64,000 bases of DNA from positions 1-64,000 of IMG/VR virus record IMGVR_UViG_3300045003_000166; one strand, 5' to 3'. The translations under genes and the position numbers were made by a program. Shown one piece after another: positions 1,756 through 49,293 of the stretch. How positions within the stretch are numbered: position 1 is the stretch's first letter; each line of letters begins with the position of its first letter. This DNA comes from a virus. The notes beneath the pieces are model-generated. The model was not told the origin of the DNA and ran no database searches. It was given only the letters and a program-made list of their open reading frames with translations.

Positions 1756-4608
1756 GTGGCCGACGAGGGCGGATTCGAGATCGCCAAGGCGTACGTCACG
1801 ATCGAGGCGGACGACACCGGGCTGCGCGAGAAGATCGCAGCGAAGATCGGGGCGGCGGCCGAGGGGCTGTCCATCCCGGTAGGGTTCGAGGTCGATCCGG
1901 CCAAACTGCGTGAGGAGGTCTCCGCCGCGGTCAAGGTGGCCGGCGCCGGCGAGCACGTCGATGTCGGGATGCGCCTGGACGACGCCGGGCTGCCCGCGGT
2001 TCTCAGCGAACTGAACGCCTCGTTCGGGGACCTGATGACCAGGACCCAGGATCTGCAGGGCGTGTTCGACGACCTGGCGAACGGCGCCCACGACGCCCAG
2101 CAGGCTCACGAGGACTTGCGGGACTCTTCGGACCGGCTCAGCGCCTCGCTCGATGACGCGGGCCGGTCAGGCGACGACCTCGCGAAGAAACTCGACTCGG
2201 TCGGTGCCTCGAGCCGAGGCGCGGGCGCTGCCGCGGGTGACGCTGGGGGCGGTTTCTCCGGCATGTCCACGATGATGATGGTCGGCGTCGCCGCTGCGGT
2301 CGCTCTCGGCCCGGCTCTAGCTGCCCTTCCCGCCCTGTTCGGCGGTCTCGGCCTCGGCATGGGTGCCGCCCTCGGGCCGCTCAAGGACATCGTCGCCGCC
2401 CTGTCCGCGTCCGACCAGGCGGCGGCAGGGGCGGGACAGACTGCCGCGCAGGCTGCCCAGACTGCCTTCTCCAACGCCGTCGCCATCCAGAACGCCGAAC
2501 AGGCGATCGTCGACGCCAAGCGCCAGAGCGCGATCGCCGCCCAGAATTCGGCCGACTCGATCGCCGCCGCCAACCAGCAAGTGATCACCTCTGAGCAGAA
2601 CGAGGCTCAGGCCGCCCAGAACCTCGCGCAGGCGCAGGCTGACGCCCTCAACCAGATCGCCGACCTGAACAACTCGGCGGCCGACGCCAAGAACGGCGTC
2701 GCCGACGCCAACCTGGCAGTGCAGCAGGCCCAACAGAACCTGAACTCGGTGATGGCCAACTCGCTGTCCACCGACCTGCAGAAGCAGCAGGCCCAGCAAG
2801 CGTTGGTCGACGCTGAACAGCGGCTCACCGACGCTAAGCAGCATTCCACCGAGGCAACTCAGGCCGCTGACAAGGCCAACCAGGAGGGCGTGGCCAACTT
2901 CCCGCCCGTCGTGCAGGCCCAGCACGCCTACGAGCAGGCGGTGCTCGCCACGGCCAACGCCCAGCACCAGTTGCAGGTGGCGCAGCGCAACGCCAGCGAC
3001 CAGATGATCTCGTCGGCCGAGGCGGTGCAGAAGGCCGAGACGAATCTGACCGACACGATCAAGCAGCAGCAACTCGCCGCCGCGGTCGCCGCCCAGTCCG
3101 GTGCCGCGGGCGCCACTGCCTATGCCCAGGCCATGGCGAAACTGACCCCTGTGGGGCAGCAGGTGGTGCTGTTCCTGAAGAACATGAACGACGGCATGTC
3201 GGCCGCTGCACAGAACTCCTTCCTGCCCGGCGTTCTGACGTTCCTGCAGGACATCCAAGGGGTGATGCCGCAGTTCGTCTCCGCCGTCTCCCAGGCCGGC
3301 AGTGCCTTTGGCGGCATCATCGCCCAGGTGGGAGGCTTGTTCAAGAACCAGACCTTTGTCACCCAGTTTTTCACCGTGCTGCAGCAGGGCGTCGGCATGC
3401 TGACCACGATCGGCGGCGGCATCGTCCAGATGATCCAGGGGGTCACTTCCGCGGCGTCTGGCGCCGGGCCGATCGTCTCCGCCGTCGGCCAGGGGATCGC
3501 CGACCTGCTCGCGGCCATCGGGCCGCTTCTGCAGGGCCTGACTGACAACGCGTCCGGCGCAGGGCAGTCGATCGAATCGATCATCGGGTTCGTCGCCGAC
3601 CTGCTCGGGCCACTCGGCCAACTCGTCGGAGCCATCTCAGGCGCCCTCGGCCCGGCACTCGCCATCCTACGGCCCGCCCTGGACGAGATCATCCGCGCTC
3701 TACTGCCACCGCTGATCCAGTTGATCACCGCGCTCTCGCCGATTCTCGCCGCCGTCGCACAGGCCCTGGCACAAGGACTGGACGCCGCCATCACGGCCAT
3801 GCTTCCGAGTCTCGACAACCTGATCAACGCCGTGGTCCAGCTCCTGCCGGGGCTGACCCCGCTGATCCCTACCCTGGGCAACCTGCTGGCTGCCGCGATG
3901 CCGCTGATCGAGTCGCTTCTCACACTTTCGGTCGCCATCCTCGGACCTGTCATCAGCGCCTTGACTCCGCTCCTCGACTGGCTGGTCAAGATCATCGACT
4001 ACGGTGTCAACTACGTGACACCGTGGGTGCAGAAGATCAGCACCGACTTCACCAACACGACGAAGCAGATCAGCGACGCTTTCGACACGGCAATCAACTG
4101 GGTGGAGGACCACTGGAACGGCTTCGTCCGCTGGCTGGAGGGCATCCCGGGACAGATCGGCAGTGCCTTGTCAGGACTCTGGGATTCTATCCCCAACATG
4201 TTCCGGGCCGCGGTCGACACCGTGATCGGCTGGTGGGACTCGATCAGTTTCACCGTGCCGAAAATCGAGGTTGCCGGGTTCACCATCTTCGGCGGCGAGA
4301 CGTTCACCATGCCGCAGATCCCCAAACTCGCCGACGGCGGCACCGCCACGTGGGGCGGCTTCGTGAACGTCGGCGAGCGCGGCATGGAGCGCATGTGGAT
4401 GCCCGCCGGGGCGACCGTTCAACCGCTCACCCACCACAACCAGGCGATGCCCGGATCAGGCGGCATCACCGTGCAGAACCTCAACGTGACCGTCAACCAG
4501 AAGGGCTTCGCCGACTTCACCAATCCCAACGCCATGTCGGCCTCCGCCCGCGCCCAGGCGGTGCACATCCGCGACGCGCTCAACCAGCTGCAGGCGGCGT
4601 ACTCATGA
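1756..4608 (+). CDS. tape measure protein
   Basis: 950 aa, Ala/Gln-rich coiled coil plus hydrophobic helical repeats; synteny. Confidence 0.92.
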   Translation: MADEGGFEIAKAYVTIEADDTGLREKIAAKIGAAAEGLSIPVGFEVDPAKLREEVSAAVKVAGAGEHVDVGMRLDDAGLPAVLSELNASFGDLMTRTQDLQGVFDDLANGAHDAQQAHEDLRDSSDRLSASLDDAGRSGDDLAKKLDSVGASSRGAGAAAGDAGGGFSGMSTMMMVGVAAAVALGPALAALPALFGGLGLGMGAALGPLKDIVAALSASDQAAAGAGQTAAQAAQTAFSNAVAIQNAEQAIVDAKRQSAIAAQNSADSIAAANQQVITSEQNEAQAAQNLAQAQADALNQIADLNNSAADAKNGVADANLAVQQAQQNLNSVMANSLSTDLQKQQAQQALVDAEQRLTDAKQHSTEATQAADKANQEGVANFPPVVQAQHAYEQAVLATANAQHQLQVAQRNASDQMISSAEAVQKAETNLTDTIKQQQLAAAVAAQSGAAGATAYAQAMAKLTPVGQQVVLFLKNMNDGMSAAAQNSFLPGVLTFLQDIQGVMPQFVSAVSQAGSAFGGIIAQVGGLFKNQTFVTQFFTVLQQGVGMLTTIGGGIVQMIQGVTSAASGAGPIVSAVGQGIADLLAAIGPLLQGLTDNASGAGQSIESIIGFVADLLGPLGQLVGAISGALGPALAILRPALDEIIRALLPPLIQLITALSPILAAVAQALAQGLDAAITAMLPSLDNLINAVVQLLPGLTPLIPTLGNLLAAAMPLIESLLTLSVAILGPVISALTPLLDWLVKIIDYGVNYVTPWVQKISTDFTNTTKQISDAFDTAINWVEDHWNGFVRWLEGIPGQIGSALSGLWDSIPNMFRAAVDTVIGWWDSISFTVPKIEVAGFTIFGGETFTMPQIPKLADGGTATWGGFVNVGERGMERMWMPAGATVQPLTHHNQAMPGSGGITVQNLNVTVNQKGFADFTNPNAMSASARAQAVHIRDALNQLQAAYS

Positions 4609-5873
4609 CCCAGTTCGGCTTCGTCAACTTCGGGCGCCTGCTCCTGGTCGAATTCCCCACCCAGGCCGCGTCACTCGCCGCCGCGGCGCCGTCCACGACC
4701 GCTCCCACCGGCCGCACACTGGCGCTCGCCGGCCAGGAGTCCACACCCGCCGCCCCCAACGTCGCCACCACCGCGGCCCAACTGCGCGCCCGGCAGGCCG
4801 ACCTGCTCGGCTCGCAGGGCTCCTTCCTCCCGGTCACCTTCACCGACAAGGCCGAACTCAACGGCTACTACACCGTCACCGACGTCTCCGCCGACCTGCA
4901 GAACTGGGAGCAGGAGGCCGTCACCCTCACCTGGAAGACGAACCTCGAGCGTATCGGCACCGACCTGGAGGTGGACCTCGAATCGCGGTTGACCGGTGGC
5001 ATCCGTAACTCCAGCTTCGCTGCGTCCGCGAACGGCGTGCGGTGGCACGCCCCTTCGATCGGCCACTACGCGTATTTCACCGCCTCGGGCAACACCCCGT
5101 CCGTGATCGTGCGCCAGAGCGCCGAAGGCGCCATGAACATCTACACGGGGCTTCCGCTGACCGGGTCCGTCATCCCTAGGTGGGGCTGTGCCGTCGGCAA
5201 CTACCTGGGCGGCCGGGTCCGCTTCCTCGACGACCAGGGCATCGAACGGGCCGGCATCCTGTTTGCCAACGGCTCGCCCTCCTCCTGGACGATCCTCAAC
5301 GCACTGGTCCAGGTCACTCCCTTGTCGTCCGGCGGTGTGTTCAACGTCGCCTCCTGGGCGAGCGGATCGTCCGCGTACCAGTCGAAGAACTGGGACCTGC
5401 AGTACAACAGCTCGTCACTCGGCGTGCCGCTGGGCATCAGTCTGCTGCGCAACGAGCCGGAGATCCTGGTCGCGCGCCTGATCTGGTCCACCACCGGGCC
5501 GAACCGGGTGACCGCGGACCTCACCCTGCGCCGCGGTTCCCGGTTCCTCGAGTTGTACCTGCAGTCGCAGGTGGCGGGCGTGCTCAAGGTAGTGCGCTCG
5601 AGCGCAGAGGCGGGAACGTCGGGCGGCTCCGGCGCATACCTGTCCGCCACCGCAAACGACGCGGCCGGAAACCGGTACGTCATCGGCAGCGCCCTGACCA
5701 ATACCCAGGACCTGGTGAACGGCGGCATCTCGGTGTCCGCCTCCACCACGTTCGACGCCTTCGTGGGCGCGGCCGTCGGCGGTTCCTCCGCCCAGGGCGG
5801 TGATGCGGCGTCGGACCTCTGGAATCAGTACATTGCGGCGCCAGCGGAGCTGGTGCAAGGCATCAGGCGGTAA
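4605..5873 (+). CDS. minor tail protein (distal-tail-like)
   Basis: ATGA-coupled to the tape measure; real start MTQFGFVNFG inside the longer ORF call. Confidence 0.8.
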   Translation: MTQFGFVNFGRLLLVEFPTQAASLAAAAPSTTAPTGRTLALAGQESTPAAPNVATTAAQLRARQADLLGSQGSFLPVTFTDKAELNGYYTVTDVSADLQNWEQEAVTLTWKTNLERIGTDLEVDLESRLTGGIRNSSFAASANGVRWHAPSIGHYAYFTASGNTPSVIVRQSAEGAMNIYTGLPLTGSVIPRWGCAVGNYLGGRVRFLDDQGIERAGILFANGSPSSWTILNALVQVTPLSSGGVFNVASWASGSSAYQSKNWDLQYNSSSLGVPLGISLLRNEPEILVARLIWSTTGPNRVTADLTLRRGSRFLELYLQSQVAGVLKVVRSSAEAGTSGGSGAYLSATANDAAGNRYVIGSALTNTQDLVNGGISVSASTTFDAFVGAAVGGSSAQGGDAASDLWNQYIAAPAELVQGIRR

Positions 5874-5878
5874 ATCAG

Positions 5879-8737
5879 ATGCCTGTAACTGAGACTTTGA
5901 TGGCCGTCGGCTCCTGGAGCCTGACACTGTCTCCGGACACCCCGCGCTCCATCATCGACTCCCTGCAGTACTTCCAGCACATCGTGATCGCCACCGGCCG
6001 CCAGGACCCCCGGGTGGCGGGCAACTCGCTCTTCTCCGCCGGACGCTACACCGGGGTCATCACCGGCCTGGACTTCCAGAGTCTGAAGGCCGGCCGCGGT
6101 CCGGTGATTTCCGGCGACGGCCTGGCGACGTGGCTCGGGACGCCGAAGGGCGTCGGGCCGGTCATCGAGAACACGACCACGTTCACCTCGGCCGCCTACT
6201 CGACCGTGGTGGGCACCCTGCGCCCGGCCGCCGTCGGGGCGGGTACCAATTACGCGATGCCGGTGTCCGCCACTTACACGGGCGCCTTCGTCTGGAAGAC
6301 CCCTCGGGACGCGCTCACCTCCTTCGCCCAGCAGGTGACCCAGGGGCCGCTGCCCACCCAGATCGCCGAGTGGCGGGTGAACGGGAACTGCACGCTCGAC
6401 TTCGGCCCCGTCGCCTCCCTCTACCGCACCAACCCCACGGTCGCGATCGTCGCCAAGAACGAGGGCGTCGACATGCAGGTGCGCGCCCTGCCCGGGGTCG
6501 CGGAGCTCATCGAAGACGTCAAGGACTACACGACCAGGACCGTGGTCCTCGCCTCCGGCACGGGAGCGGCGACCGCGGTCGGAGCGGCGAACATCGCCGA
6601 CGTCGGGGGTTCGAACCCGTACACGGACTTCTTCGGCAACGCGGTCCAGATGACCCGGATGATCTCCGCGTCGTCGGTCAGCTCCTTCAACGCCACGGCC
6701 TCCGCCCAGGCCGCCCTCATCCCATACACCGTCCCGGCCGACCAGGTGAAGCTCACCTCGTCCGAATACGACATCAAGGGCGAGTTGCAGGTCGGCGACT
6801 ACGCCTGGGTGTACGACCCGGACGCGGGCCTGGTCGACTTCAGCCAGCAGATCGTCTTCCGCGGCCAGCGGATCAACCCCACCAAGCAGCGCATCATCGA
6901 ACTGACCTGGCCGATCGTCGAGGACATGACGGTCGCCTACCGCGACCAGTCCGGCACCTGGCACGACCTGACCGACTACGTGCAGTGGGAGACCGGCGAC
7001 ACGACCGTGGTCGTCGGCGGCTACAACCGCAACCTGGTGCCCACCTCCGAGCCCGTCGGCCCGCGGCCGATCCCGGACACCACGATCCCCGGCACGCCTG
7101 CGTTCAACCTGCCGTTCACCACCACGACCTATCTGAGCAGTTCGAACGGCCACACTCGCGCGCAGATCCAGCTGTCCTGGACCACGCCGACCAACACCGA
7201 CGGCACCACCATGACGGACCTGGACCACTACGAGATCCAGTATCGGCCGGACCTCACCGTCAGCGCGGTCAACCCGACGTGGAACGCCCTGAACTCCGGC
7301 GGCTACACCTGGAACGCGCTGAACGCGGCCGGCGGCACCTGGAACCAGCTGCTCGCCCCTCCCACGTCCCAGTGGAAGGTGACATTCGTCGCGGGCGGAG
7401 TCAACACTCTGCTCGTTCAGGAGCTGACCCCGGGCGTCACCTACGATTTCCAGATCCGCGCCGTCGACACGGCGCAGCCGCCCAACGTCGGGGCCTGGTC
7501 GGCGACCACTCTTTTTCAGGCGTCGGTGGACACGATCCCGCCGCCCACGCCAGACGCTCCCACAGTGGCAGCCGGCCTCGCCTCCGTGCAGATCACCTGG
7601 GACTGCGGCTCCGCGAGCGGCGGCACCTTCAACCAGGCGGCGGACCTCAACCACATCGAGGTGCACGGCTCCCTCGACCCGCTGTTCCAGCCGAGCGCGA
7701 CGACGAAGATCGGCAACGTCATCGCGAACATCGGCAACATCCTGGGCCAGATCCCGGTGGTGGCGACCCTCACCCTGCCGCCCGGCCAGCCGCCGGCCCA
7801 GAGCCTGTTCATCAAGATCATCGCGGTGGACAACTCGGGCAACAAGTCCAGCCCGTCCGCCTCGGCCGGCGCCAGCGCGGTCCTGTGGTCGAATGCGTAC
7901 ATCACCGACCTGTCTGTCAGCAAGCTGACCGCGGGCACGATCACGGCATCGGTGATCATGGGCGGGGTGATCGGGACCGCCCTGTCCGGCCAGCGCGTCA
8001 CCATGGACTCCACCGGGTTCCATGCCTACGACGCCAACGGCAACAAGATCTTCGACGTCAGCAGCGCCAGCCCTGTCCTCACCCTGGGCCGGTCGGCGGC
8101 CAACTCCATCCTGATGGACACGTCGCAGACGTTCCCGACGATCCAGTTCAACAACGGCGCCAACTACGGCCCCACGCAGTCGTCCACGCTGGCCGGCGGG
8201 AACCTGCCCGGCGGCATTCCCGCCCTGATCGCGACCGGCAGCCAGTACACGCCCAACAACCCGATTTCGACGAACTCCACCGCGCAGCTGGTCCTGGGCT
8301 CCGATGGCGGGACCACAGGCCTGCAGATCGCGGATGTGACCAGCAAGGTAGCGTATTCCGGCCTGACCGTGGCCAGCGACCAGGTCCGCATGGTGGTTAC
8401 CGACCTGTCCGGCAACGTGGTGGGGGCGCTGCGGATCGGCGACGACGCCAATTTCTACGGCACGGGAGTTTTCCTCGACTCTTTCGCCCTGGCCGGGACG
8501 GACCTGTGGTTCGCCGGCCAGACCGGCGGAGCGAGCGGGTTCAGCGGCTTCGCCATCAGCTACGGTCTCACCTTCTCTGGGCTCGTCCTGCCGGTGGCGG
8601 CCGTGCTCGACACCACCGGCGGCACCTCCACCCAGGGCTGCTATCTCAGCGCCGCGTCCAGCACCGGTTTCACCGTCTCCTGGCACACCACGACGGTCAG
8701 TCAGGTGAACTACTGGGCGCCTCGGTATGCGAACTAG
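5879..8737 (+). CDS. minor tail/tail-tip protein with fibronectin type III domains
   Basis: FN3 hallmarks LSWTTP...YEIQYR...ELTPGVTYDFQIRAVD; SVSKLTAGTITA fibre motif. Confidence 0.85.
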   Translation: MPVTETLMAVGSWSLTLSPDTPRSIIDSLQYFQHIVIATGRQDPRVAGNSLFSAGRYTGVITGLDFQSLKAGRGPVISGDGLATWLGTPKGVGPVIENTTTFTSAAYSTVVGTLRPAAVGAGTNYAMPVSATYTGAFVWKTPRDALTSFAQQVTQGPLPTQIAEWRVNGNCTLDFGPVASLYRTNPTVAIVAKNEGVDMQVRALPGVAELIEDVKDYTTRTVVLASGTGAATAVGAANIADVGGSNPYTDFFGNAVQMTRMISASSVSSFNATASAQAALIPYTVPADQVKLTSSEYDIKGELQVGDYAWVYDPDAGLVDFSQQIVFRGQRINPTKQRIIELTWPIVEDMTVAYRDQSGTWHDLTDYVQWETGDTTVVVGGYNRNLVPTSEPVGPRPIPDTTIPGTPAFNLPFTTTTYLSSSNGHTRAQIQLSWTTPTNTDGTTMTDLDHYEIQYRPDLTVSAVNPTWNALNSGGYTWNALNAAGGTWNQLLAPPTSQWKVTFVAGGVNTLLVQELTPGVTYDFQIRAVDTAQPPNVGAWSATTLFQASVDTIPPPTPDAPTVAAGLASVQITWDCGSASGGTFNQAADLNHIEVHGSLDPLFQPSATTKIGNVIANIGNILGQIPVVATLTLPPGQPPAQSLFIKIIAVDNSGNKSSPSASAGASAVLWSNAYITDLSVSKLTAGTITASVIMGGVIGTALSGQRVTMDSTGFHAYDANGNKIFDVSSASPVLTLGRSAANSILMDTSQTFPTIQFNNGANYGPTQSSTLAGGNLPGGIPALIATGSQYTPNNPISTNSTAQLVLGSDGGTTGLQIADVTSKVAYSGLTVASDQVRMVVTDLSGNVVGALRIGDDANFYGTGVFLDSFALAGTDLWFAGQTGGASGFSGFAISYGLTFSGLVLPVAAVLDTTGGTSTQGCYLSAASSTGFTVSWHTTTVSQVNYWAPRYAN

Positions 8738-18797: not shown

Positions 18798-20453
18798 CTA
18801 CCCGCGCAGGAAGCCGGAAACGAGCTGAGGCAGGCTGGCGTCGAAACCCGCCACCTGCAGCACGCCCTCGTCCCGCGGGTCCGCGATCGTGTGCCCGGCC
18901 GCGGTCATCGACGCGACGATCAGTCGGGCGTTCGGGTTCCTCGCCGACCGGTACGAGCGCAGTGCCTGGGAGGGGTGCATCTTGCCCGCCCAGGTCTCGT
19001 TGTCGGTCAGGACCAGGAAGCCGTCCGCCACGACGCCCGCTCGCTGCGCCCATGAGAAGGGGAGCGAGAGGTCGGTGCCGCCCCCGGACGGACGCCACGA
19101 CTGGATCTCGCGCAGACTGGTGCGCGCCGTGAGCCGGGAGGCGTGGACACTGGTGTCGACGTCGATGACCTGGACGTTGCCCTTCTCGATCCGGGCCGTG
19201 GTCAGCGCCATGCCGTTCGCGACCTCGTACACGCTGCCCAGCGGCGAACCGCCGAGCGTCATGTGGCTGCTCATCGAGCCGGACGAGTCGACCGCGATCA
19301 CCAGCTTCCTTCCCGACGGCTCGACGTGGCCGAAGGAGAGCTCGAACGCCTCCTCCAGCGCGTCGGAGACGGCGGTGATCGGCGACCAGGTGCGCAGCTT
19401 CGCCTTCGGGTTGGGCTGCGCGGACCCTGAGTTGTAGACCTTCAGGGCGAGGTAGAGGTCCAGCGGGTGGACGCGCGCCTTCGCCAGGGCGCCCGAGTCC
19501 GTCAGCCGCTTCGCCACGTCGCTGACCGAGGATCCCAGCGGGGTGAGGGCGCCGATCCTCGTCATCCGGGCCAGGTTGCGGATCAGGGCCGTCAGGCCCA
19601 CTGTGTGCGCCAGCTCCGCCCAGACCTCCGGCGAGTCCAGCACGCCGTCGTCCAGGAACTCCCACGGCACGCGCAGCGTACGTACGGCTGTCACGGCCTC
19701 GGCCGGACGGGTCACCGACTTGGCGATCCGGTACTTCTCGACGCTCGGCAGCAGCGCGCCCGCCTCCGCCTCGGTGACGGTGCCGGCGAGCCAGCCGAAC
19801 AGCGCCCGGTACGCGGGATCTTCGACGTGCGGCTTCGCGAGCCGGAGCATGTCCTTGAGGGCGAACGGCTCGCCGGAGCCGGTCTTGCGCGCCTTCGCCT
19901 TACACGCCCGGAACGCGACCCGGTCCGCCTCGTCGGACAGGAACCAGTCAGTCAGGGCGGTGCGCATCAGCCGGTTCATCACCGGCTTCGTCCCGCGCCC
20001 CGACGGCTTGCCGCGCAGGTTCTTGTAGTAGCCCCAGAAGTGCGCCAGGTGGTCCGTGGTCCTCGCCACCCGGGGAAGCGCGGCGCGCGCCGCCCGGCGC
20101 GTGTCCAGGTCGCCGGTCGCGACCGCGGCGGCGAGCACGAACAGGGCCGGGAAGTTCTTCGGCGCGCGGGCCGGCTGCGCGGCACTGATCTGGGTGGCCA
20201 GGGCGACCGCGCGCACACCGTCGGCGGTGATCGCGTCGAACACGACCTTCGCGCCCGCGTAGGTGTGCTCCTTCTCCCCCACGTAGTAGGTGCCGCCCGT
20301 GGTGCCGAGGATGACGAAGTCCTCGAGCTTCGTCCACACGTCCTTGGCGAAGGTGAATCCGCCTGCCGAGTTGCGGACCATGTCAGCCTCGCGGCCCAGG
20401 ATCGGCTCGCTCTGCGGCGTACGCACGGTACTGATCGCGGACAGTGCGTCCAT
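18798..20453 (-). CDS. rsr: Ro60/Rsr TROVE-vWA ribonucleoprotein
   Basis: NSAGGFTF, FVILGTTGGTYY, ALIRNLARMT, vWA MIDAS DSSGSM, GGGTDLSLP, TDNETW, AGFDA. Confidence 0.95.
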   Translation of the reverse strand: MDALSAISTVRTPQSEPILGREADMVRNSAGGFTFAKDVWTKLEDFVILGTTGGTYYVGEKEHTYAGAKVVFDAITADGVRAVALATQISAAQPARAPKNFPALFVLAAAVATGDLDTRRAARAALPRVARTTDHLAHFWGYYKNLRGKPSGRGTKPVMNRLMRTALTDWFLSDEADRVAFRACKAKARKTGSGEPFALKDMLRLAKPHVEDPAYRALFGWLAGTVTEAEAGALLPSVEKYRIAKSVTRPAEAVTAVRTLRVPWEFLDDGVLDSPEVWAELAHTVGLTALIRNLARMTRIGALTPLGSSVSDVAKRLTDSGALAKARVHPLDLYLALKVYNSGSAQPNPKAKLRTWSPITAVSDALEEAFELSFGHVEPSGRKLVIAVDSSGSMSSHMTLGGSPLGSVYEVANGMALTTARIEKGNVQVIDVDTSVHASRLTARTSLREIQSWRPSGGGTDLSLPFSWAQRAGVVADGFLVLTDNETWAGKMHPSQALRSYRSARNPNARLIVASMTAAGHTIADPRDEGVLQVAGFDASLPQLVSGFLRG

Positions 20454-20468
20454 GTACGTTCCCTTCTA

Positions 20469-20494
20469 CTCAACCCGGCGAGGTGCCGGATGTG
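20469..20494 (-). promoter_or_regulatory. Ro-binding-site-like hairpin abutting the rsr RBS
   Basis: CACATCCGGC-ACCTC-GCCGGGTTGAG: the same two strands as the Y-RNA stems in swapped order, next to AGAAGGG. Confidence 0.6.
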
Positions 20495-20535
20495 TTGCGT
20501 CCCGCACGCCGTGGTGGATGCGTACGGGCCGAGGA

Positions 20536-20667
20536 GGCGGATGTGGGAGTGAAGACCGGGTTTAAGCGTCTTAGGCCGCTGGACCACCGGACCGGGGAAA
20601 GGCCCGGGCAGGATTCGAACCTGCATCTCTCCTTTGGAAGAGGTAACCGATCTGCGTTCAACCCGCC
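20536..20667 (-). ncRNA. YrlA-like Y RNA, permuted tRNA mimic, UCC loop
   Basis: GGCGGGTTGAA...CACATCCGCC terminal stem; CT-TCC-AA loop; T arm GCAGG-TTCGAAT-CCTGC; loop-closed acceptor stem; D arm. Confidence 0.85.
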
Positions 20668-20722
20668 CGAATTCGTGCTGGTGCCGACCCGTTCGCCTTC
20701 ACCGTGCGCGCGGGGCGGCGGA

Positions 20723-20856
20723 CCGGACGGATGTGGATTTTGGAACCGGGGGAAGTGCTGCCGCTACACCACAGAACCCGTTTCCGGATCCCGGCGGGAT
20801 TCGAACCCGCGCCTTATCTTTACGAGAGATAACCGATCCCTGTTCAACCCGTCCGG
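20723..20856 (-). ncRNA. YrlA-like Y RNA, permuted tRNA mimic, CGU loop
   Basis: CCGGACGGGTTGAA...CACATCCGTCCGG; TATCT-CTCGTAA-AGATA; GCGGG-TTCGAAT-CCCGC; GAAA-capped acceptor stem; D arm. Confidence 0.85.
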
Positions 20857-20914
20857 GTTGCCGTGCTGGTGGTGCTCAAAACCCGGACCCTGAGGGAACC
20901 GGGTGGTGCAAGGT

Positions 20915-21050
20915 GTCCGGATGTGGAGTCGACCACCGGTGTTAAGCGCTCTGCCAATTGAGCTACCGACCTGTTTTACCAGCTCGGGCGGGACTTGAAC
21001 CCGCAACCACTCTCTTAACAGGAGATAACCGACGGTCTTTCAACCCGGAC
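20915..21050 (-). ncRNA. YrlA-like Y RNA, permuted tRNA mimic, GUU loop
   Basis: GTCCGGGTTGAA...CACATCCGGAC; TCTC-CTGTTAA-GAGA; GCGGG-TTCAAGT-CCCGC; D arm TAGCTCAATTGGCAGAGC. Confidence 0.88.
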
Positions 21051-21063
21051 GAAGTCTGTGCGG

Positions 21064-21134
21064 CGGAACGGATGTGGAGTGCTGCTACCGGATCAATCGC
21101 CAAAAGATAACCGGCGGCGTTTCAACCCGTTCCG
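21064..21134 (-). ncRNA. short Y RNA without tRNA-like domain
   Basis: CGGAACGGGTTGAA...CGGTTATCT...CCGG...CCACATCCGTTCCG; starts at the predicted +1 of the motif promoter. Confidence 0.75.
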
Positions 21135-21140
21135 TGGAAC

Positions 21141-21170
21141 ACGCTACAGGGCGGCGTGACTATCCGTCAA
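21141..21170 (-). promoter_or_regulatory. motif promoter driving the Y-RNA/rsr operon
   Basis: TTGACGGATAGTCAC, 18-nt spacer, TAGCGT. Confidence 0.75.
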
Positions 21171-21518
21171 CTCAATTTTGTCGGCATCAGTCAGTCCGCC
21201 CGCAATCATGGCGCGCGTCTTGCGTGACACCGACACCAACAGGTCGCCCTCGTACTTCACGCGGACCACCGCGACCAGCACGGCGTCGCCGTACACGGGT
21301 GACAGGGTCAGCGCCTCGGCTCGGCGGTTGAACGGGACGACGGCATCGAGCGGGTGGGAGTGCAGGTCCAGGAACGCGCCGCGGTCCGTGCCCACCTGCA
21401 CATGCGGACCGGGCGCCAGCCGGCGCACGACACGCCGCGCCCAACCCTGGAAGGGAGGAAGCCAGACAGAACGCACCGGCTTGCCGTCGTCGGCCGGGAT
21501 GAGGAGGGCGCGCATCAT
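21144..21518 (-). CDS. hypothetical protein (DUF3846-like)
   Basis: ALLIPAD...PFNRRA...VYGDAVL pattern. Confidence 0.5.
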   Translation of the reverse strand: MMRALLIPADDGKPVRSVWLPPFQGWARRVVRRLAPGPHVQVGTDRGAFLDLHSHPLDAVVPFNRRAEALTLSPVYGDAVLVAVVRVKYEGDLLVSVSRKTRAMIAGGLTDADKIELTDSHAAL

Positions 21519-21684
21519 CTCTTCCTTCGCTGCTTGGACTTGTAAGGGCTCTTGATGACGGGCGCCTGGGACAGGTCATGGACCTTGTCCACGTCGTACA
21601 CCCACGGCTGCCACGCGGCCCGCGTGTGGGCGGCGAACACCGCCGGGTCGCCGAGTTCGGCGACCAGCTGGTCGTAGATGGGTG

Positions 21685-21939
21685 TCACGGTGCCTCCTTC
21701 AGGCGATAACGTCCCTTGATCCGGTCGGAGATCTCGTCCACCCGGTCCCAGTACTGGCGCGGCACGGCGCAGGCGTCCGCGCAGAAGTCGACGAGCGCGG
21801 CGATGAGGATCGCCGGGTCGGTGCGCAGCGCCGTGTAGTGGGTGGCGATGCTGTCCGGCAGGTGGGCCTCGTCCACCTTCTTGTAGCGCTTCGCCAGGTA
21901 GGCGACCTGGCGATTCAGGTCGTCGAGAGCGGCGGTCAT
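21685..21939 (-). CDS. hypothetical protein
   Basis: ATGA-coupled gene chain. Confidence 0.55.
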   Translation of the reverse strand: MTAALDDLNRQVAYLAKRYKKVDEAHLPDSIATHYTALRTDPAILIAALVDFCADACAVPRQYWDRVDEISDRIKGRYRLKEAP

Positions 21940-22190
21940 GCGGCGTGCGGCTCGTAGATCGCGGCCAGCAGCCGGTAGTGGTGCTCGATCTTGTCCTTCA
22001 CAGCGTTGCCCTCGCCGTAGCCGTCTTTCAGCCACCGACGCCGCAACTCGTACAGGTCCTTGACCTGCTTCCATGCGAACTCGTGATGCCGTTTCTCGGC
22101 GGTCGAGAACCCCGGCGGCTCGTTGACCAGCGCCGCCAGGGACTCCTGCAGAACCCTCATCGTGTCTCTTCGCACGTCGGGAACGCTCAT
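21936..22190 (-). CDS. hypothetical protein
   Basis: GGAGG RBS; coupled. Confidence 0.55.
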   Translation of the reverse strand: MSVPDVRRDTMRVLQESLAALVNEPPGFSTAEKRHHEFAWKQVKDLYELRRRWLKDGYGEGNAVKDKIEHHYRLLAAIYEPHAA

Positions 22191-22519
22191 CCCACCTCCA
22201 CCCACTTCCTCAGCTCGTTGGTGACCAGCTGCACCTGGGTGCGCAGCCCCTCGTTCTCCTGCGCCAGGCGGACGTTTTCGGCCAGCACCTCGGCGCACTG
22301 GGCGCAGGCCTGCGCATCCGGTTCGGCTTTCAGCAGGCGCAGCTGATCGGCGCGGTACGCCCTCTCGAACTTGTCGCCGTCCACCAGGACGTAGAACAGC
22401 CGCGCCTTCGCCTCCCCCGGTACCTGGGCGGAGCTGACCACGGTGCCCGGTTTCCAGCCGGCCATCCGCCGCACCTCCACCCGGTCGCCCTTGGCATAGA
22501 GGTTCCGTTCGTCAGCCAC
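22187..22519 (-). CDS. SH3-like plus coiled-coil protein
   Basis: YAKGDRVEV...WKPGTVV. Confidence 0.55.
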   Translation of the reverse strand: MADERNLYAKGDRVEVRRMAGWKPGTVVSSAQVPGEAKARLFYVLVDGDKFERAYRADQLRLLKAEPDAQACAQCAEVLAENVRLAQENEGLRTQVQLVTNELRKWVEVG

Positions 22520-22814
22520 GTCCGGCTCTCCCGGTCAGCCGCCGCTCGCGCTTCTGCTCGTCCAGCGTCAGCACGAAGCCCCGGTTCTGCAGCGGGAACC
22601 AGCCCATCCGGAAGCAGATCCCGATCAAGTGATCGGCGCCGGTCGCGCCCAAGCGCCTGCTCATCCGGCCCAGGTGCGATTTCACGCTAAAGGCGCTGAT
22701 GTGCACCCGCTTGGCCACGCCCTTCTGCCCCAGGCCGTGGGCGATGAACCAGAGGATCTCCAGTTCCCGCTCGGTGGGCGCGGTCCCGAGAGCGGGATAG
22801 TTGCGGCCGGCCAT
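22512..22814 (-). CDS. stand-alone LuxR HTH, WhiI-like C-terminal domain
   Basis: TERELEIL...ISAFSVKSHLGRMSRRLG; no receiver domain. Confidence 0.8.
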   Translation of the reverse strand: MAGRNYPALGTAPTERELEILWFIAHGLGQKGVAKRVHISAFSVKSHLGRMSRRLGATGADHLIGICFRMGWFPLQNRGFVLTLDEQKRERRLTGRAGRG

Positions 22815-23044
22815 CACGTGCTCCAGTGGTCGCGAATGTGGATGAGCTTGCCGATCAGTGCCTCGAGCCGAGCAAAGTAGGCCGGGCTGACCACCTCCAA
22901 ACCACCCACGCCGTCCGGGACGGCGGTGACGGAGGCCAGCCGGGCGGCGGTCAGGCCGCACAGTAGGTCGACATCCGCCTTGTCGATCTCCTGCGCGCGC
23001 CGCTCGGCCAGCCGCCGTAGCGCGCGCTCCTGACGGCGGCTCAC
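22814..23044 (-). CDS. hypothetical protein
   Basis: GTGA-coupled between the two HTH genes. Confidence 0.5.
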   Translation of the reverse strand: MSRRQERALRRLAERRAQEIDKADVDLLCGLTAARLASVTAVPDGVGGLEVVSPAYFARLEALIGKLIHIRDHWST

Positions 23045-23430
23045 ACCTGCTCCCCGACCGCGTGCAGGCGCCTGACCACCGTCTGCGCGATCCGGCCGGG
23101 AACGCCAGTGAGGGCGAAGAGCACCGCTTTCGCCTCCCGGGCCAGGGACTCGTCGTGTACGGCGAGCCAGCGCAGCACGTCCGGGTCCAGCAGGTCCCAC
23201 TTCTCCGGAGGCGCGGCCACGGTTCCGGTGTTCTGGCGGATGGCGATCAGGCCCTTGTCGATCAGGCACGCCACCGCCTCCCGAACGACCGTGCGCGACA
23301 CGCCGTACTGCTCGCACAGCTCGTGCGCGTTGGTGGCCTCCAGGTCGCCCGCGACGATGCGCGCGCCGAGGATCTCGACGAGCCGCTGGGTGAGGCTGGG
23401 GTTGGAGATGTGGTCCAGGGCGGCTGTCAT
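23041..23430 (-). CDS. truncated GntR/FadR wHTH, WhiH-like
   Basis: LGARIVAGDL...YGVSRTVVREA...KGLI..RQNTGT...WDLLDPDVLRW; lacks the FCD effector domain. Confidence 0.8.
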   Translation of the reverse strand: MTAALDHISNPSLTQRLVEILGARIVAGDLEATNAHELCEQYGVSRTVVREAVACLIDKGLIAIRQNTGTVAAPPEKWDLLDPDVLRWLAVHDESLAREAKAVLFALTGVPGRIAQTVVRRLHAVGEQV

Positions 23431-23939
23431 GGCCGCGCTCCTTCCAGGTGGCGCCGCGCACTGCACGTCGCACGGTATTGAAGAGCTCTTAGAGCGCTGT
23501 CTTTGATCCCCATCACCCGCGCCGCCTCGCACACGTCGAGGTCGAGCAGGAAGCGCAGCGTCAGGCACTTCGCCTGGGGAGCGGACAGACGGGGCAGTAC
23601 ATCGACGACAGCGTGGCGTTCCGCGAGCGTCGCCGGGTTGTCGGGCTCCCGGCCCCACACCATCGGCTCGTCCGCATAGAACTCGGCGCACAGGCCTTCG
23701 CGTTCGAAGCGGGCCGACTTGCGGAAGTCGAGGAATACGCGGGTGGTGATCGTCTGCAGCCACGGGCCGTAACCGCGCCCGTCGTCCGTGAAGCCGTCCA
23801 GATTGCGCAGGGCTTTGACGAACACGTCGTGGGTGAGGTCTTCCGCGTCACTCGCATTGCGCACGCGCAGGTAGAAGAACCGGAACACCCACGGGCGGTT
23901 GTCCGCGTAGAGCTGCGAGACCGCGTCAGTCCCGTCCAC
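23427..23939 (-). CDS. ECF sigma factor, BldN/AdsA-like
   Basis: Region 2 DAEDLTHDVFVKALR...WL; DFRKSARFERE; region 4 CLTLRFL...AARVMG...LQYRA. Confidence 0.88.
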   Translation of the reverse strand: MDGTDAVSQLYADNRPWVFRFFYLRVRNASDAEDLTHDVFVKALRNLDGFTDDGRGYGPWLQTITTRVFLDFRKSARFEREGLCAEFYADEPMVWGREPDNPATLAERHAVVDVLPRLSAPQAKCLTLRFLLDLDVCEAARVMGIKDSALRALQYRATCSARRHLEGARP

Positions 23940-24216
23940 ACAGGCTCCTGACGACGCGCACCAGCCGGGGAGTGGCCGCGATCGCGGTCGCGGCGGTGGC
24001 CAGCAGGACGTACACGGAGCTCACCCAGATCGCGGCATGCCAGGACTGTGCCCAGTCGCCGGTCAGGATGTGGCAGAGCCAAGCGGAGGCGAAGAACGTC
24101 CCCGTCGCGGCGGCCAAGATGACAGCCCCGGCCAGTGCGGTGTCGCGGACGGTTCGGGAATGCAGAACGCGGAACAGCACGAAGTCCCCCAGACAGGTGT
24201 AAAACGTGACGTTCCG

Positions 24217-24246
24217 ATGGTACGACGATACGTGACTATCCGTCAA
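24217..24246 (-). promoter_or_regulatory. motif promoter upstream of the sigma/HTH cluster
   Basis: TTGACGGATAGTCAC, 18-nt spacer, TACCAT. Confidence 0.7.
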
Positions 24247-24508
24247 GACAAGGGACGCTTATTCGACCTCGTCTTTGAGGAGCACGCCGAAGCAGTAGCA
24301 CTGGTCGCGGGTGCACTCGTCGCAGACGAGGCAACAACCGCACTCCTCGCAGAAGGCCTCACCGCATACCGGCTCGTCGTCCTCGGCCGGCGCCTCGTCC
24401 ATGCCACTCACCACGCACGCGGTCCCTTCCAGTACTGCTTGGAGTACCAGCGCGTCGCACACCGCCCCGACCGGGCGGCCAGATGGAGCGACCGGCTCGC
24501 GCCGCGCC

Positions 24509-26056: not shown

Positions 26057-26060
26057 CGCG

Positions 26061-26080
26061 GTGTGTGTGTGTGTGTGTGT
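26061..26080. repeat. (GT)10 microsatellite
   Basis: Perfect dinucleotide tract. Confidence 0.95.
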
Positions 26081-39467: not shown

Positions 39468-39746
39468 TCACGCCTCCCGGATCTTCGCGGCGTGGCAGGT
39501 CCGGCACACCGGGACCGGCTTGCCGAACAGCGTCTTACTCGGCACCTCGCGCACGACGCCGTCCGCGCGCCAGCCCTCGCACAGGTGAGGCTCGTAGACC
39601 GGGCAGAGGCAACAACATGCGGCGTCGGCCGGGATCCTCGTCAGCGCCAGTTGGGCGGTGACCGCAGCCATGCGCTTCAGCGCACCGGCCGCCGCGTCCA
39701 CGCTCTCCCGGAACGCCTCCGGGTCGAAGGGCTTGTCAGTCGTCAC
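39468..39746 (-). CDS. hypothetical Cys-rich protein
   Basis: CCCLC...HLC...CRTC. Confidence 0.55.
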   Translation of the reverse strand: MTTDKPFDPEAFRESVDAAAGALKRMAAVTAQLALTRIPADAACCCLCPVYEPHLCEGWRADGVVREVPSKTLFGKPVPVCRTCHAAKIREA

Positions 39747-39939
39747 CGCGCTGCATCTCCCTGAACGCCTCCACCAGCTCCTCCACCGCGCTGATCGTGG
39801 CGGAGAGAGCGGCGGCCAGCAACCCTTCCTCGTGGCCCGCGCACCGGCCGTTCAACTGGTGCCACCCGTCCAGCTCCGCCAGGCTGTCCTTCGCCTTTTC
39901 CAACTGCTCGGTCGGCATCATCGTGTCGTAGTGCGCCAC
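39736..39939 (-). CDS. hypothetical protein overlapped by the integrase tail
   Basis: GGAGGAG RBS before GTG. Confidence 0.5.
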   Translation of the reverse strand: MAHYDTMMPTEQLEKAKDSLAELDGWHQLNGRCAGHEEGLLAAALSATISAVEELVEAFREMQRGDD

Positions 39940-41134
39940 CAGTCTCCTCCCTCCTGACACGCGCCAGCGCGTCCCGGCCCGCGGCCAGGTCCTCGGGCCG
40001 CGCGTGCACGTAGTTGTCGTAGGTGAAACTCGCCTTCGTGTGCCCCATCCACGCCGCGATCACATGGCCCTGCACACCGGCCCGGGCCATCCGGGAGCCG
40101 GCCGCGTGGCGCATCGCCTCGTACGGCGTCACCTTGCGCACCCCGGCCTGGTCCATCAGCCGGTACATGTAGCGGCGCAGCCGCTGCGTGTCGAACGGGG
40201 CGCCCAGTTGATCGGCCAGCACGTAGCCGCCCTGCGGGTCCAGGAACCAGGCGTCGCCCGCGTTCTCCCGCTCCGCCTCCTGGACGCGTCGCCACTCGCG
40301 CAGCGCGTCGGTGAGTGCTTCGTCCAGGGGGAGGATGCGGATTCCGGCCGGGGTCTTCGCCTCCTTCTCCACCGGCTTGCCCTTCACCATGGTGCGCACG
40401 ATCATCCCCACCGCCACATTGCGGGCGATCAGGTGCACGTGCGGCCAGCGCAGCCCGCACAACTCCTCCGGGCGAAGGGCGCGGGCGAACAGCTCCACCA
40501 GCGCGGCCAGCCGGTCCTGCGCGGCGCACGCGAAGAAGCGCTCCTCCTCGGCGTCGCTCCACAGGTCGTGCACCGGCTTGCTCCGCTTCGGCCGCTGCAC
40601 GAGCCGGACCGGGTTGTAACCGATGCGCCGCTCGGCCACTGCCACATCCAGGGCCGTCTGTAGCTGCGCCAGCGTCTTGGAGATCGACGTGGGCCCGTGT
40701 CCGCGCCCGTACTTCTTCGACACGCTGCGGGCGCGTCCCTGCGTCTCCATCCACACGACCAGCTTGTCGAACTCGGCCTTGTCCAGTTCCTGCAGCGGGC
40801 GCGTGCCCATGAACCGGCGCACCGGGGCGAGGAGGTTCCGGTAGGTGTTGAGAGTCGCCGCTTCCTTCCCCCGCAGTCCCGCCTCCCAGGCGTCCAGCTC
40901 CTCGTTGAGCGTCCGCTTGGAGGGAAGGACGATCATGCCGGTGTTGATCTCGTGCCGGATGCGGGCGAGCTCGGCGCGCGCCTCCTTCAGCGTGTCCCAG
41001 GTGGAGGTGTCCTGGTTGCGCTTGCCCGGCTGCGCCGGGTCCGGGGGCAGGTCGACGACGAGCCGGTACCGGACGGTCTTGCCGTCCGCCAGCTTGATCC
41101 TGCGGATCGGCTCCTTGCCCGCCTTCGCCACCAC
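39743..41134 (-). CDS. int: tyrosine integrase
   Basis: LRPEELCGL (R), KTPAG (K), MRH (R), WMGH (H), NYVH (Y); N-terminal arm-binding domain. Confidence 0.93.
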   Translation of the reverse strand: MVAKAGKEPIRRIKLADGKTVRYRLVVDLPPDPAQPGKRNQDTSTWDTLKEARAELARIRHEINTGMIVLPSKRTLNEELDAWEAGLRGKEAATLNTYRNLLAPVRRFMGTRPLQELDKAEFDKLVVWMETQGRARSVSKKYGRGHGPTSISKTLAQLQTALDVAVAERRIGYNPVRLVQRPKRSKPVHDLWSDAEEERFFACAAQDRLAALVELFARALRPEELCGLRWPHVHLIARNVAVGMIVRTMVKGKPVEKEAKTPAGIRILPLDEALTDALREWRRVQEAERENAGDAWFLDPQGGYVLADQLGAPFDTQRLRRYMYRLMDQAGVRKVTPYEAMRHAAGSRMARAGVQGHVIAAWMGHTKASFTYDNYVHARPEDLAAGRDALARVRREETGGALRHDDADRAVGKGEGQPGGAGRVAPVERPVRGPRGRVAGRRSLRHDQRGGGAGGGVQGDAAR

Positions 41135-41617: not shown

Positions 41618-41661
41618 TTGACTGATAGTCACATCATCTCCCATGCGTGACTATCTGTCAA
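41618..41661. promoter_or_regulatory. inverted pair of TTGAC-N-GATAGTCAC motifs
   Basis: 41618-41632 (+) and 41647-41661 (-). Confidence 0.75.
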
Positions 41662-48174: not shown

Positions 48175-48844
48175 CAGATGTCACCTGCGGTTTCTTCGAA
48201 ACTTAAGGTGGTTCCGGCACTGGGGGAGGAAAAGGAACCGCCGTCCTCCCCGTGGTCGGCGGTGTCGCGCTCATATTGCTCGAGCAGCCTGCGCAGTTCG
48301 GCGTCGCGATCCGCGTCCAACGCCTTGATCTGGTCCATGACCCGCGTCGTGTAACGGTCCAGGTCCGCCTTGCGGCCGGAGATCTGTGCCGCATACCTGT
48401 CGTTGACCGCCTTGCGGTCGGCGAGCAGGCGCCGGAAGCGGTCCACTTGCCACACGTCCTCGGGCTCGAGCGGGCCGTCGGCCAGGACGCAGGTCGCGCC
48501 CGCCAGCGGGGAGGAAGAGGGATTCACCGTCTCGCGGACGGCCTGACGCACCGCGGGATCGTTCCAGGCGCCGTCCATCAGTCCGCGTCCGGGTCGCCGA
48601 TGAACGACAGAACCGTCAGGGCGTTCTGGCCCTCGTCGGTCAGCTGCAGGCACAGTGCGCCGTCGGTGGCGCGGACCGCCTCCAGCTGACCGGCCTGCAG
48701 CAGGTCGATGACGGCCAGGTCGAAGGCCGGGTCGTTGACGCCGCCCTCCGCGTGGTCGCCGGTGACGATTGCGTGCACGGCCTCGTCGACGGGCATCGGG
48801 GACACGACACACCTCCATGGGCGTGAAATCAGGTTTGTGTCCCC

Positions 48845-48873
48845 AGTATCGGGCTTACGTGACTATCCGTCAA
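48845..48873 (-). promoter_or_regulatory. first leftward early motif promoter
   Basis: TTGACGGATAGTCAC, 17-nt spacer, GATACT. Confidence 0.7.
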
Positions 48874-49192
48874 GACATATTGTCACATGATTCAAGATTC
48901 AACTACTTTAGTTCACGATTCAACCACTTCGGGCGCCCCTTACAGATCCTGAGCGTGGCTAACGGTTTATACCGGCCAGTAATACAACCAAGGTCCGGTT
49001 CCGGCAACTGAGAGCCGGTTTGGGATGAGGAAGAGGTTTCCTCAGCAGCTCCACTGTCAGTCAGCAGAATTTTTTATACGTCTACGTGTGTTGACCCTTT
49101 AGGGTGAACGTGCACGTTTAATGCGTTTTTGGTGGCTGGCGGAGCAGTGGCGGGCGCAACATCTTCCCCCACCCAAACCCTGTGCCGAATCA

Positions 49193-49244
49193 CCGGAACC
49201 GGCTCTCGGTTCCGGTCGCCGGTCAAACCGAGAGCCGGTTCCGG
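49193..49244. repeat. perfect 19-bp inverted repeat
   Basis: CCGGAACCGGCTCTCGGTT-N14-AACCGAGAGCCGGTTCCGG. Confidence 0.9.
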
Positions 49245-49293
49245 CTTTCAGGCAATTAGGACATACGTGGACGTAGACGTGTAAGCTGAACCT

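Follow-up and report, generated by a model that had tools for sequence, protein, structure and literature searches.

Within the first 64,000 bases of the IMG/VR virus record IMGVR_UViG_3300045003_000166 (72,563 bases, estimated to be 94% complete), hereafter the window, a minus-strand operon encodes three DNA-binding regulators: a sigma factor of the extracytoplasmic function (ECF) class, a GntR-type winged helix-turn-helix (wHTH) protein and a LuxR-type helix-turn-helix (HTH) protein. All genes between 21144 and 24246 lie on the minus strand, and from the promoter downstream the following features are present (aa, amino acids; ORF, open reading frame).

24217..24246, minus strand: sigma-70-type promoter TTGACG-N18-TACCAT, the first 15 nt of which (24246-24232) are a copy of a phage-wide motif
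23926..24180, minus strand: 84-aa protein with two hydrophobic segments; GTG start after a GGGGGA Shine-Dalgarno sequence, stop overlapping the start of the sigma gene
23427..23939, minus strand: 170-aa ECF sigma factor (Pfam Sigma70_r2, 49.8 bits; Sigma70_r4_2, 26.1 bits)
23041..23430, minus strand: 129-aa GntR wHTH protein with the FadR-type linker WDLLDPDVLRW (GntR PF00392, 37.1 bits)
22814..23044, minus strand: 76-aa protein without a known family, its gene coupled in translation to both neighbours
22512..22814, minus strand: 100-aa LuxR/GerE HTH protein (GerE, 37.6 bits), HTH in residues 14-70, with a 30-residue basic tail
21144..22519, minus strand: remainder of the transcription unit, five small ORFs (110, 74, 84, 57 and 124 aa) of no known family

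A sequence-only reading of this DNA had proposed an operon of coupled sigma, GntR and LuxR genes behind a motif promoter. This arrangement was confirmed, but the 84-aa and the 76-aa gene, which are the first and the fourth of the operon, had been missed. The sigma stop and the GntR start overlap as ATGA, the GntR stop and the start of the 76-aa gene as GTGA, the junction of the 76-aa and the LuxR gene reads TGATG, and the LuxR gene overlaps the next gene by 8 nt, with a GGAG-like Shine-Dalgarno sequence 6-8 nt 5' of each start. The coupling is firm, as are the homologies and the stripped architectures described below. The G+C content at third codon positions (GC3) is 0.82-0.93 in the frames of the operon, as in real genes, and 0.86 in the 84-aa ORF. 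Between 21000 and 26500 the only promoter-like site is that at 24246-24217 (one against 0.3 in shuffled sequences), and the operon ends just before the next copy of the motif promoter at 21170-21156. A Pfam search of eight neighbouring small ORFs gave no matches, and a PADLOC scan gave nothing meaningful. For the 84-aa protein the sole family match is a weak one to Phage_holin_3_6 (13.8 bits, E 0.063), with no PHROG or NCBIfam family; its hydrophobic segments, judged by eye, are probably transmembrane. A complex prediction of the sigma with this membrane protein as a putative anti-sigma factor scored 0.00, which, as it was run without controls, is evidence neither way. The 76-aa protein had no Pfam, PHROG, NCBIfam or PADLOC match, and a look-up in a protein atlas returned a best score of 0.88 and no family.

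Sigma-BldN is the Streptomyces ECF sigma factor for the chaplin, rodlin, bldM and rsbN promoters, and RsbN is its anti-sigma factor. The resemblance of the phage sigma to BldN, suggested in the sequence-only reading, is borne out, as BldN comes first among families, solved structures and host paralogues. However, the protein is an outlier, being divergent and falling outside the clade of the Streptomyces BldN proteins. The top NCBIfam model is TIGR02952 (ECF subfamily sigma, BldN family) with 95.1 bits (94.4 in a second scan), followed by SigX with 63.5 bits; the Streptomyces BldN of genome G003 scores 262.4 bits on the same model. The best chain in the Protein Data Bank (PDB) is 6dxo_A with 85.9 bits, followed by SigE with 35.8. 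The aligned residues of 6dxo_A are near-identical to Streptomyces BldN, and because of its sequence this chain is taken here as BldN, for which the RsbN-BldN paper gives the code 6C03. Among the six-frame translations of five Streptomyces genomes the bldN locus is the top match to the sigma in every genome (101-104 bits, 40-41% identity, over 160 residues), while the best sigma paralogue reaches 46-48 bits among 26-61 candidates per genome. When 1.84 billion representatives were scanned with HMMER, 11,781 matches were obtained at E<=0.001, the best non-self match having 141.6 bits. TIGR02952 is the best family for all of the top ten non-self matches, five of which score above its cut-off; one match, P0006, has 87-91% identity to genes of 80 listed Streptomyces genomes, and 594 of 600 candidate stretches of that scan encode a relative. 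The motifs KSARFERE and CLTLRFL..LQYRA, which had been named as BldN-like, correspond to KSSRFRLE and CVTLRFL..LQYRA in Streptomyces BldN. By these comparisons, it is well supported that the phage sigma descends from the BldN lineage. Among phage records, the tblastn matches of the sigma were limited to Streptomyces phage Gilgamesh and two crAss-like phages (24-28% identity), and a word-indexed protein search of low sensitivity found three weak sigma relatives.

The phage sigma shares the two-domain ECF architecture of Streptomyces sigma-BldN. It consists of sigma2 and sigma4 only, and its start lies eight residues into mature BldN, without an N-terminal extension, whereas the open frames of the host bldN loci comprise 284-300 aa and the BldN proteins in databases 286-288 aa. 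BldN of S. coelicolor is reportedly made as a proprotein, as Bibb and Buttner are said to have described in 2003. The phage differs from the sigma-BldN/RsbN system in that it has no pro-region, no RsbN homologue and no CGTAAC-N16/17-CGTT promoters. A tblastn search of the phage genome with the 411-aa protein encoded in the rsbN position after bldN in G003 gave no RsbN homologue at E<=0.01. According to the available text of PMC6101532, 18 BldN residues contact RsbN, and Glu11 and Asp20 form salt bridges to the invariant RsbN Arg67. Eight of these 18 residues are identical in the phage sigma, four are conservatively replaced and six are lost; those kept lie mostly in sigma4, and the lost ones include Glu11 (Gly in the phage) and Asp20 (Ala).

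WhiH is a sporulation regulator of the FadR subfamily of GntR proteins, and its gene adjoins hrdB. In the phage GntR protein the wHTH is followed by about 50 residues, and the protein has no FCD match (Pfam, NCBIfam) and no UTRA match (Pfam); on NCBIfam it has weak mixed matches of about 27-30 bits to PhnF, PdhR, LldR and others. The best PDB match is 7c7e_A (48 bits), a 229-aa putative DNA-binding transcriptional regulator, and both share the linker W..LD.DVL.W. In all five Streptomyces genomes the top match is one and the same conserved locus (59 bits, 41-46% identity), followed by matches of 40-48 bits, among 38-70 candidates per genome. In G003 the gene at this locus (313 aa) is just upstream of the principal sigma gene hrdB (NF004561, 843 bits) and a gyrB/parE-like gene. 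Because these neighbours match the whiH gene context given in the accessible part of PMC12019637, we consider the locus to be whiH. The phage GntR and the whiH-locus protein are 45% identical over 83 residues comprising wHTH and linker (BLASTP), the recognition helix SRTVVRE is identical in both, and the phage linker WDLLDPDVLRW aligns to WNLLDPDIIEW. The proposed WhiH motif SRTVVRE..KGL..WDLLDPD indeed corresponds to SRTVVRE..KGL..WNLLDPD in the host protein. In comparison to WhiH the phage GntR is much reduced, having 129 instead of about 313 aa and neither the N-terminal extension of about 80 residues nor any of the C-terminal effector domain. A careful maximum-likelihood (ML) tree of 25 rows, made of all 23 host matches at E<=1e-4 and two phage proteins, places the phage GntR in a clade (support 82/80) that is polytomous inside and also contains WhiH, another conserved group of paralogues and a singleton. 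In the best tree WhiH and the two phage GntRs are on one side of a branch with a support of 35/68; forcing the phage GntRs together with the paralogue group costs 4.0 log-likelihood units and is not rejected (approximately unbiased test, p-AU 0.168). The proposal of a WhiH-like GntR therefore stands as far as the nearest host protein is concerned, but not as an exclusive grouping in the tree, and WhiH is a moderately supported best estimate of the putative relative. The word-indexed search, whose low sensitivity makes it no evidence of absence, found no GntR relatives beyond the protein itself.

WhiI and BldM are atypical NarL-type response regulators that form a heterodimer. The 100-aa LuxR protein of the phage is an HTH only, with 13 residues in front of it and no receiver domain, in which it differs from both. 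In family and structure searches it shows no more than a general likeness to the NarL type, with 20-26 bits to MadR, NarL and VraR. The search of the five genomes gave flat top scores, from 34.6 to about 32 bits, among 40-99 candidates, and WhiI ranked first to third per genome; the 20 best loci of this search were then scored by phmmer on six-frame ORFs. One conserved response regulator among the best matches is next to the genes of the ShbA sigma and IMP dehydrogenase, which is the bldM context according to the available text of PMC12019637. A second recurring response regulator lies two genes from a fadA-fadB pair; whiI is SCO6029 and has the same position relative to SCO6027-6026. Furthermore, the protein in the whiI position has Ala-Asp where receivers have Asp-Asp, and WhiI has been described as lacking one of the adjacent aspartates. 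The whiI assignment was made because of this synteny and the Ala-Asp residue; the 120 best database relatives of the protein carry generic names only. The phage HTH and the whiI-position protein are 34% identical over 58 aa; with BldM the phage HTH has 32% identity over 65 aa, and it shares the recognition-helix motif 'VKSHL' with WhiI. The proposed WhiI motif SAFSVKSHLGRMSRRLG corresponds to SALTVKSHLARIARKLG of the whiI-position protein, which is a genuine similarity but not a diagnostic one. That the protein is specifically WhiI-like was not borne out, as WhiI, BldM and a third LuxR group tie in phmmer bits. Among phage records, tblastn with the LuxR protein found nothing. Taken together, the interpretation given in the sequence-only reading is supported in part. 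The description of the three proteins as truncated and signal-independent fits their architecture, since they are devoid of the pro-region, the FCD domain and the receiver, respectively.

Boxes for BldM and for BldM-WhiI were considered as targets within the phage genome and dropped, none being enriched. The BldM Group I box occurs 0 times with <=2 mismatches (shuffles 3.2), and the Group II box 0 times with <=1 mismatch (shuffles 1.1) and 15 times with <=2 mismatches (shuffles 18.6). A near-palindrome TGACCCTTTAGGGTGA at 49092-49107, in a divergent gap of 509 bp, is similar to the BldM Group I box TCACcCgnncGgGTGA, from which it deviates by three mismatches. The LuxR-type protein could possibly use it as an operator, but as a single site it carries no statistics.

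BldN-like sigma factors are also encoded by other viruses. Exact-peptide scans of IMG/VR with each of the sigma, GntR and LuxR proteins gave no close relatives, and a scan with a BldN-family alignment detected at least 24 IMG/VR viral loci encoding BldN-like sigmas with 21-64% identity to BldN, which is why the phenomenon is not a one-off. Five viral sigmas examined on NCBIfam have TIGR02952 as the sole strong family (155.7-211.3 bits), one of them above the cut-off, and direct terminal repeats are present in three of five records checked (G006, G009, G010). In two records, both of complete phages, the sigma is accompanied by short GntR proteins.

4302-6007 of G006 (locus L124): 77-aa single-pass membrane protein, 190-aa sigma, 132-aa short GntR
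131-968 and 5004-5949 of G010 (locus L128): short GntRs and sigma region

G006 is a 95,441-bp record with direct terminal repeats and 100% complete, in which RecT-like and other early genes are followed by the 77-aa membrane protein, the sigma, the short GntR and a 580-aa methylase-like gene. Its sigma scores 193.6 bits on TIGR02952 and is 63% identical to BldN. Its GntR is 43% identical to that of the window, and its top host match is the whiH locus in all five Streptomyces genomes (78-81 bits versus 54-63 for the next, among 56-111 candidates per genome). G010 encodes short GntRs of 124 and 145 aa at a distance of about 4 kb from its sigma, a 72-aa single-pass membrane protein just after the sigma, and an integrase-like and a repressor-like gene close to the sigma and the short GntRs. 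Thus, the module of a sigma and a short WhiH-like GntR recurs in phages that have no other detectable similarity to the phage of the window.

The rsbN promoter and bldM have been reported as BldN targets, and the host BldN promoter motif was therefore derived from the DNA upstream of rsbN and bldM. Of 79 Streptomyces loci, 77 have CGTAAC-N17-CGTT no more than 400 nt downstream of bldN, where a highly conserved block GTCCGTAACCCAAGTGCC...CTCGTTGTGCGGGAT (loci L003-L082) contains it and fits the reported BldN-dependent rsbN promoter; CGTAAC-N16-CGTT is present upstream of bldM in all five genomes. The strict motif CGTAAC-N16/17-CGTT occurs 0 times in the record of the window phage, G000 (shuffles 0.22), and 0 times in G006-G010. 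The relaxed form GTAAC-N16-18-CGT is no commoner than a reversed control in G000, G006, G009 and G010, and none of the 40 upstream regions of G000 contains GTAAC. De novo search of the same 40 regions for a second bipartite promoter motif returned GC-rich noise only, a search that a singleton would escape. If the phage sigmas keep the specificity of BldN, their promoters would therefore lie in the host and not in the phage. If the specificity of the window sigma has changed, it could have a single late promoter that the search missed.

The promoter of the operon belongs to a set that is distributed over the whole phage genome. The motif TTGAC(A/G)GATAGTCAC, as an operator candidate also written TTGACAGATAGTCAC, has 14 genome copies with <=2 mismatches, compared to a mean of 0.4 in shuffled sequences. 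The copies are as follows.

11180, 15540, 17115, 17149, 21156, 24232 and 29484: copies of the 15-nt motif
38205, 41156, 41618, 41647, 48859, 58907 and 59217: further copies of the 15-nt motif

Of these copies 13 are intergenic and 12 are on the minus strand, two face each other (41618-41661), and in most of them a TAnnnT-like hexamer follows 18 nt after TTGACN. They are likely host-type early promoters, and the palindromic core TGAC-N5-GTCA that they carry could serve as an operator. A role of the phage motif as a WhiH-type operator was considered and dropped, as neither the motif nor TGAC-N5-GTCA occurs in the DNA upstream of whiH at six loci of the five genomes.

The window has a GC content of 64-71% and, among other products, encodes a tape-measure protein, a terminase, an SPP1-type portal, a helicase, a Ro60/TROVE protein and a 1,533-aa family A DNA polymerase (DNA pol A), as well as four tRNA-like genes and the following integrase.

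39743-41134: tyrosine integrase (Phage_integrase, 65.4 bits)

The terminase is 46-48% identical to those of Streptomyces phages, e.g., Rooney, Gibson and Yara, and no near-identical DNA to the region was found among 50,697 phage records. Because of the gene content, the terminase identity and the lack of shared DNA, the virus appears to be an actinobacterial siphophage-like virus distant from cultured phages. Its host is probably Streptomyces or a close relative, and the phage is probably temperate. Several further elements of the window were noticed on the way. A 67-aa ORF at 24259-24462 (minus strand), which lies just upstream of the promoter of the operon, contains densely clustered Cys residues (CGEAFCEECGCCLVCDECTRDQCYC) and has no family match, and a (CA)8 run at about 26057-26075 is directly 5' of the start codon of a minus-strand gene ending at 26056. 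The region 18798-21143 looks like a phage-borne Ro60 / Y-RNA module: a Ro60/TROVE + vWA protein is encoded at 18798-20453 (minus strand), a YrlA-like Y RNA match at 20926-21032 adjoins the Ro60 gene (E 1.4e-6, with 40.8 bits where the gathering score is 69), and tRNA-like repeats are found near that gene at 20599-21129, two of which are tRNA-Gly and tRNA-Thr according to ARAGORN. A 636-aa protein encoded at 61432-63342 has a weak Intein_splicing match in residues 280-538 (26.3 bits, below the cut-off of 35.8). Finally, a long inverted repeat CCGGAACCGGCTCTCGGTT ... AACCGAGAGCCGGTTCCGG at about 49190-49250, upstream of a rightward gene at 49315, could be a terminator or a regulatory hairpin.

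Development of Streptomyces is a textbook regulatory cascade, and we propose, with a probability of roughly 0.45, that the operon products act on host developmental transcription. The operon would then be an early regulatory cassette, read by the host RNA polymerase from a sigma-70-type promoter that carries the 15-nt phage motif, and would supply minimal versions of host developmental transcription factors. The BldN-lineage sigma, having neither a pro-region nor an adjacent RsbN-type gene, would take over the host core polymerase. The WhiH-clade DNA-binding domain, which has no effector or oligomerisation domain, and the LuxR-type HTH would, as bare HTH proteins, occupy operators of the WhiH and the BldM/WhiI type independently of the signals by which the host proteins are controlled, and the phage would thereby gain a handle on the aerial-growth and sporulation programme. 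From the sequence comparisons we infer the DNA targets, the binding to host partners and a block or forcing of development; as to the direction of the effect, neither blocking nor triggering of differentiation is favoured. We prefer an action on host development over a role inside the phage because the nearest host relatives of two of the regulators share one network, with which the third is compatible, because all three proteins are stripped of their signal-dependent parts, and because development is reported to restrict the spread of phages. According to the available portion of PMC10117723, bldN-dependent development contains phage plaques, bldN mutants show large plaques that fail to shrink, and whi genes are down early in infection. 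Indirectly, a rewiring of development would also gain support from the lack of BldN-type promoters in the phage genomes and from the conserved module in a second phage.

Several observations weigh against an action on host development. The phage sigma is only about 40% identical to BldN and stays far below the TIGR02952 cut-off of 206.45 bits. In a quickly built ML tree with 77 rows (comprising the phage sigma, five BldN orthologues, 19 of 23 viral rows, six outgroup rows and 46 of 149 database hits, leaving out the weakest four viral rows and hits P0051-P0153) it forms a branch of 1.6 substitutions in the basal polytomy of a BldN-like group of 69 rows, and the five Streptomyces BldN orthologues group elsewhere, so that the phage sigma is outside their clade. 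Its sigma2 loop reads TDDGRGYGPWLQ compared to TWQGRDFGAWLV in BldN, and therefore the promoter specificity may have changed; a single late promoter within the 509-bp gap 48806-49314 may exist. The relationship of the GntR to WhiH is statistically unsettled in the tree, and the SRTVVRE helix is present in the second host paralogue group as well. For the LuxR protein the phmmer scores amount to a tie, with 29.4-29.7 bits for WhiI, 28.8-29.2 for BldM and 27.6-31.0 for the third LuxR group. Likewise, the assignment of the host is one that we infer.

A close rival, which we hold only somewhat less probable, is that the cassette serves the phage itself. The sigma would then be a middle/late switch with drifted specificity, the HTH proteins would regulate timing or the lysis-lysogeny decision on phage operators, for which TGAC-N5-GTCA is a possible candidate, and the similarity to BldN and WhiH would record a gene capture and not the present function. 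Phage sigmas classically drive phage late genes, and the early motif is missing on the strand of the rightward structural operon, which runs from about 49315 and thus needs another promoter. The sigma is very divergent and on a long branch, the palindromic element in 14 promoters needs a binding protein, and the cassette is located among early genes without known function, all of which would suit such an internal role. However, no second recurrent promoter motif was found upstream of the phage genes, and phages with sigmas 54-64% identical to BldN are without BldN-type promoters as well. A purely internal role would also have to account for two regulators whose nearest host relatives belong to one developmental network, and for the sigma/short-GntR pair in an unrelated phage. 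The absence of the phage motif from whiH upstream DNA speaks neither for nor against a binding of the GntR to this motif.

As an alternative way of acting on the host, the operon might be a lysogenic-conversion module, whose expression from the prophage shifts the timing of aerial growth and sporulation and thus favours vertical spread via spores instead of counteracting the host during lysis. The integrase at 39743-41134 and the integrase-like and repressor-like genes near the sigma and short GntRs of G010 agree with this, and Bacillus phage sigma homologues are reported to alter dormancy in the part of PMC9429907 at hand. We regard it as improbable, as the promoter motif is common to 13 other, mostly leftward early units, suggesting lytic early expression. 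The least probable reading is that the three proteins are generic ECF, GntR and LuxR members without a particular link to developmental regulators. This would agree with the LuxR protein, whose similarity to VraR, NarL and MadR (23-26 bits) is only of the generic NarL type, and with the W..LD.DVL.W linker that the GntR has in common with its best PDB match 7c7e_A. For the sigma, such a generic origin appears already contradicted, since BldN scores more than 50 bits above the other host ECF paralogues in 5/5 genomes and 50 bits above the other PDB sigmas; moreover, each of the two phage short GntRs has WhiH as its top host match in all five genomes.

An action on host development could be taken further, to a portable development-hijack module carried by actinophages. 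Such a module would combine a BldN mimic without pro-region, which escapes RsbN, with an effector-blind WhiH mimic and, in the phage of the window, a BldM/WhiI-type HTH, and would act on the host BldN, WhiH and BldM-WhiI regulons in order to stop or force the differentiation of infected or neighbouring hyphae into phage-refractory aerial hyphae or spores. In this complete form the proposal is doubtful and is put forward tentatively. In the literature searched, phage homologues of BldN and WhiH are not described; the supplementary tables of PMC9429907 and PMC12019637 may list them. Apart from WhiB-type proteins, phage-borne copies of BldN and WhiH would be the first counterparts of bld/whi regulators in viruses. 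The stripped phage proteins would be natural dominant or constitutive alleles, and could be used to probe the sensing by RsbN, the ligand or partner of WhiH and the reading of BldM-WhiI sites.

WhiB-like and Lsr2-like regulators of actinobacteriophages are copies of global or developmental regulators of the host, too. In this respect the window operon is alike, but the protein families are different and no sigma factor is involved in those cases. By analogy, the closest described counterpart is the group of Bacillus phage sporulation-type sigmas, homologues of sporulation sigmas for which an effect on dormancy is reported (Schwartz et al., mSphere 2022; PMC9429907, available text). The main text of that paper, in the portion at hand, mentions neither BldN nor WhiG nor Actinobacteria. 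Both cases have a phage-borne sigma that is related to a developmental sigma of the host and is proposed to alter the dormancy or development of the host. In contrast to the Bacillus phage sigmas in the available text of PMC9429907, however, the window sigma is of the ECF and not of the SigF/G type, belongs to phages of another host phylum and is paired with the stripped HTH proteins of other developmental regulators.

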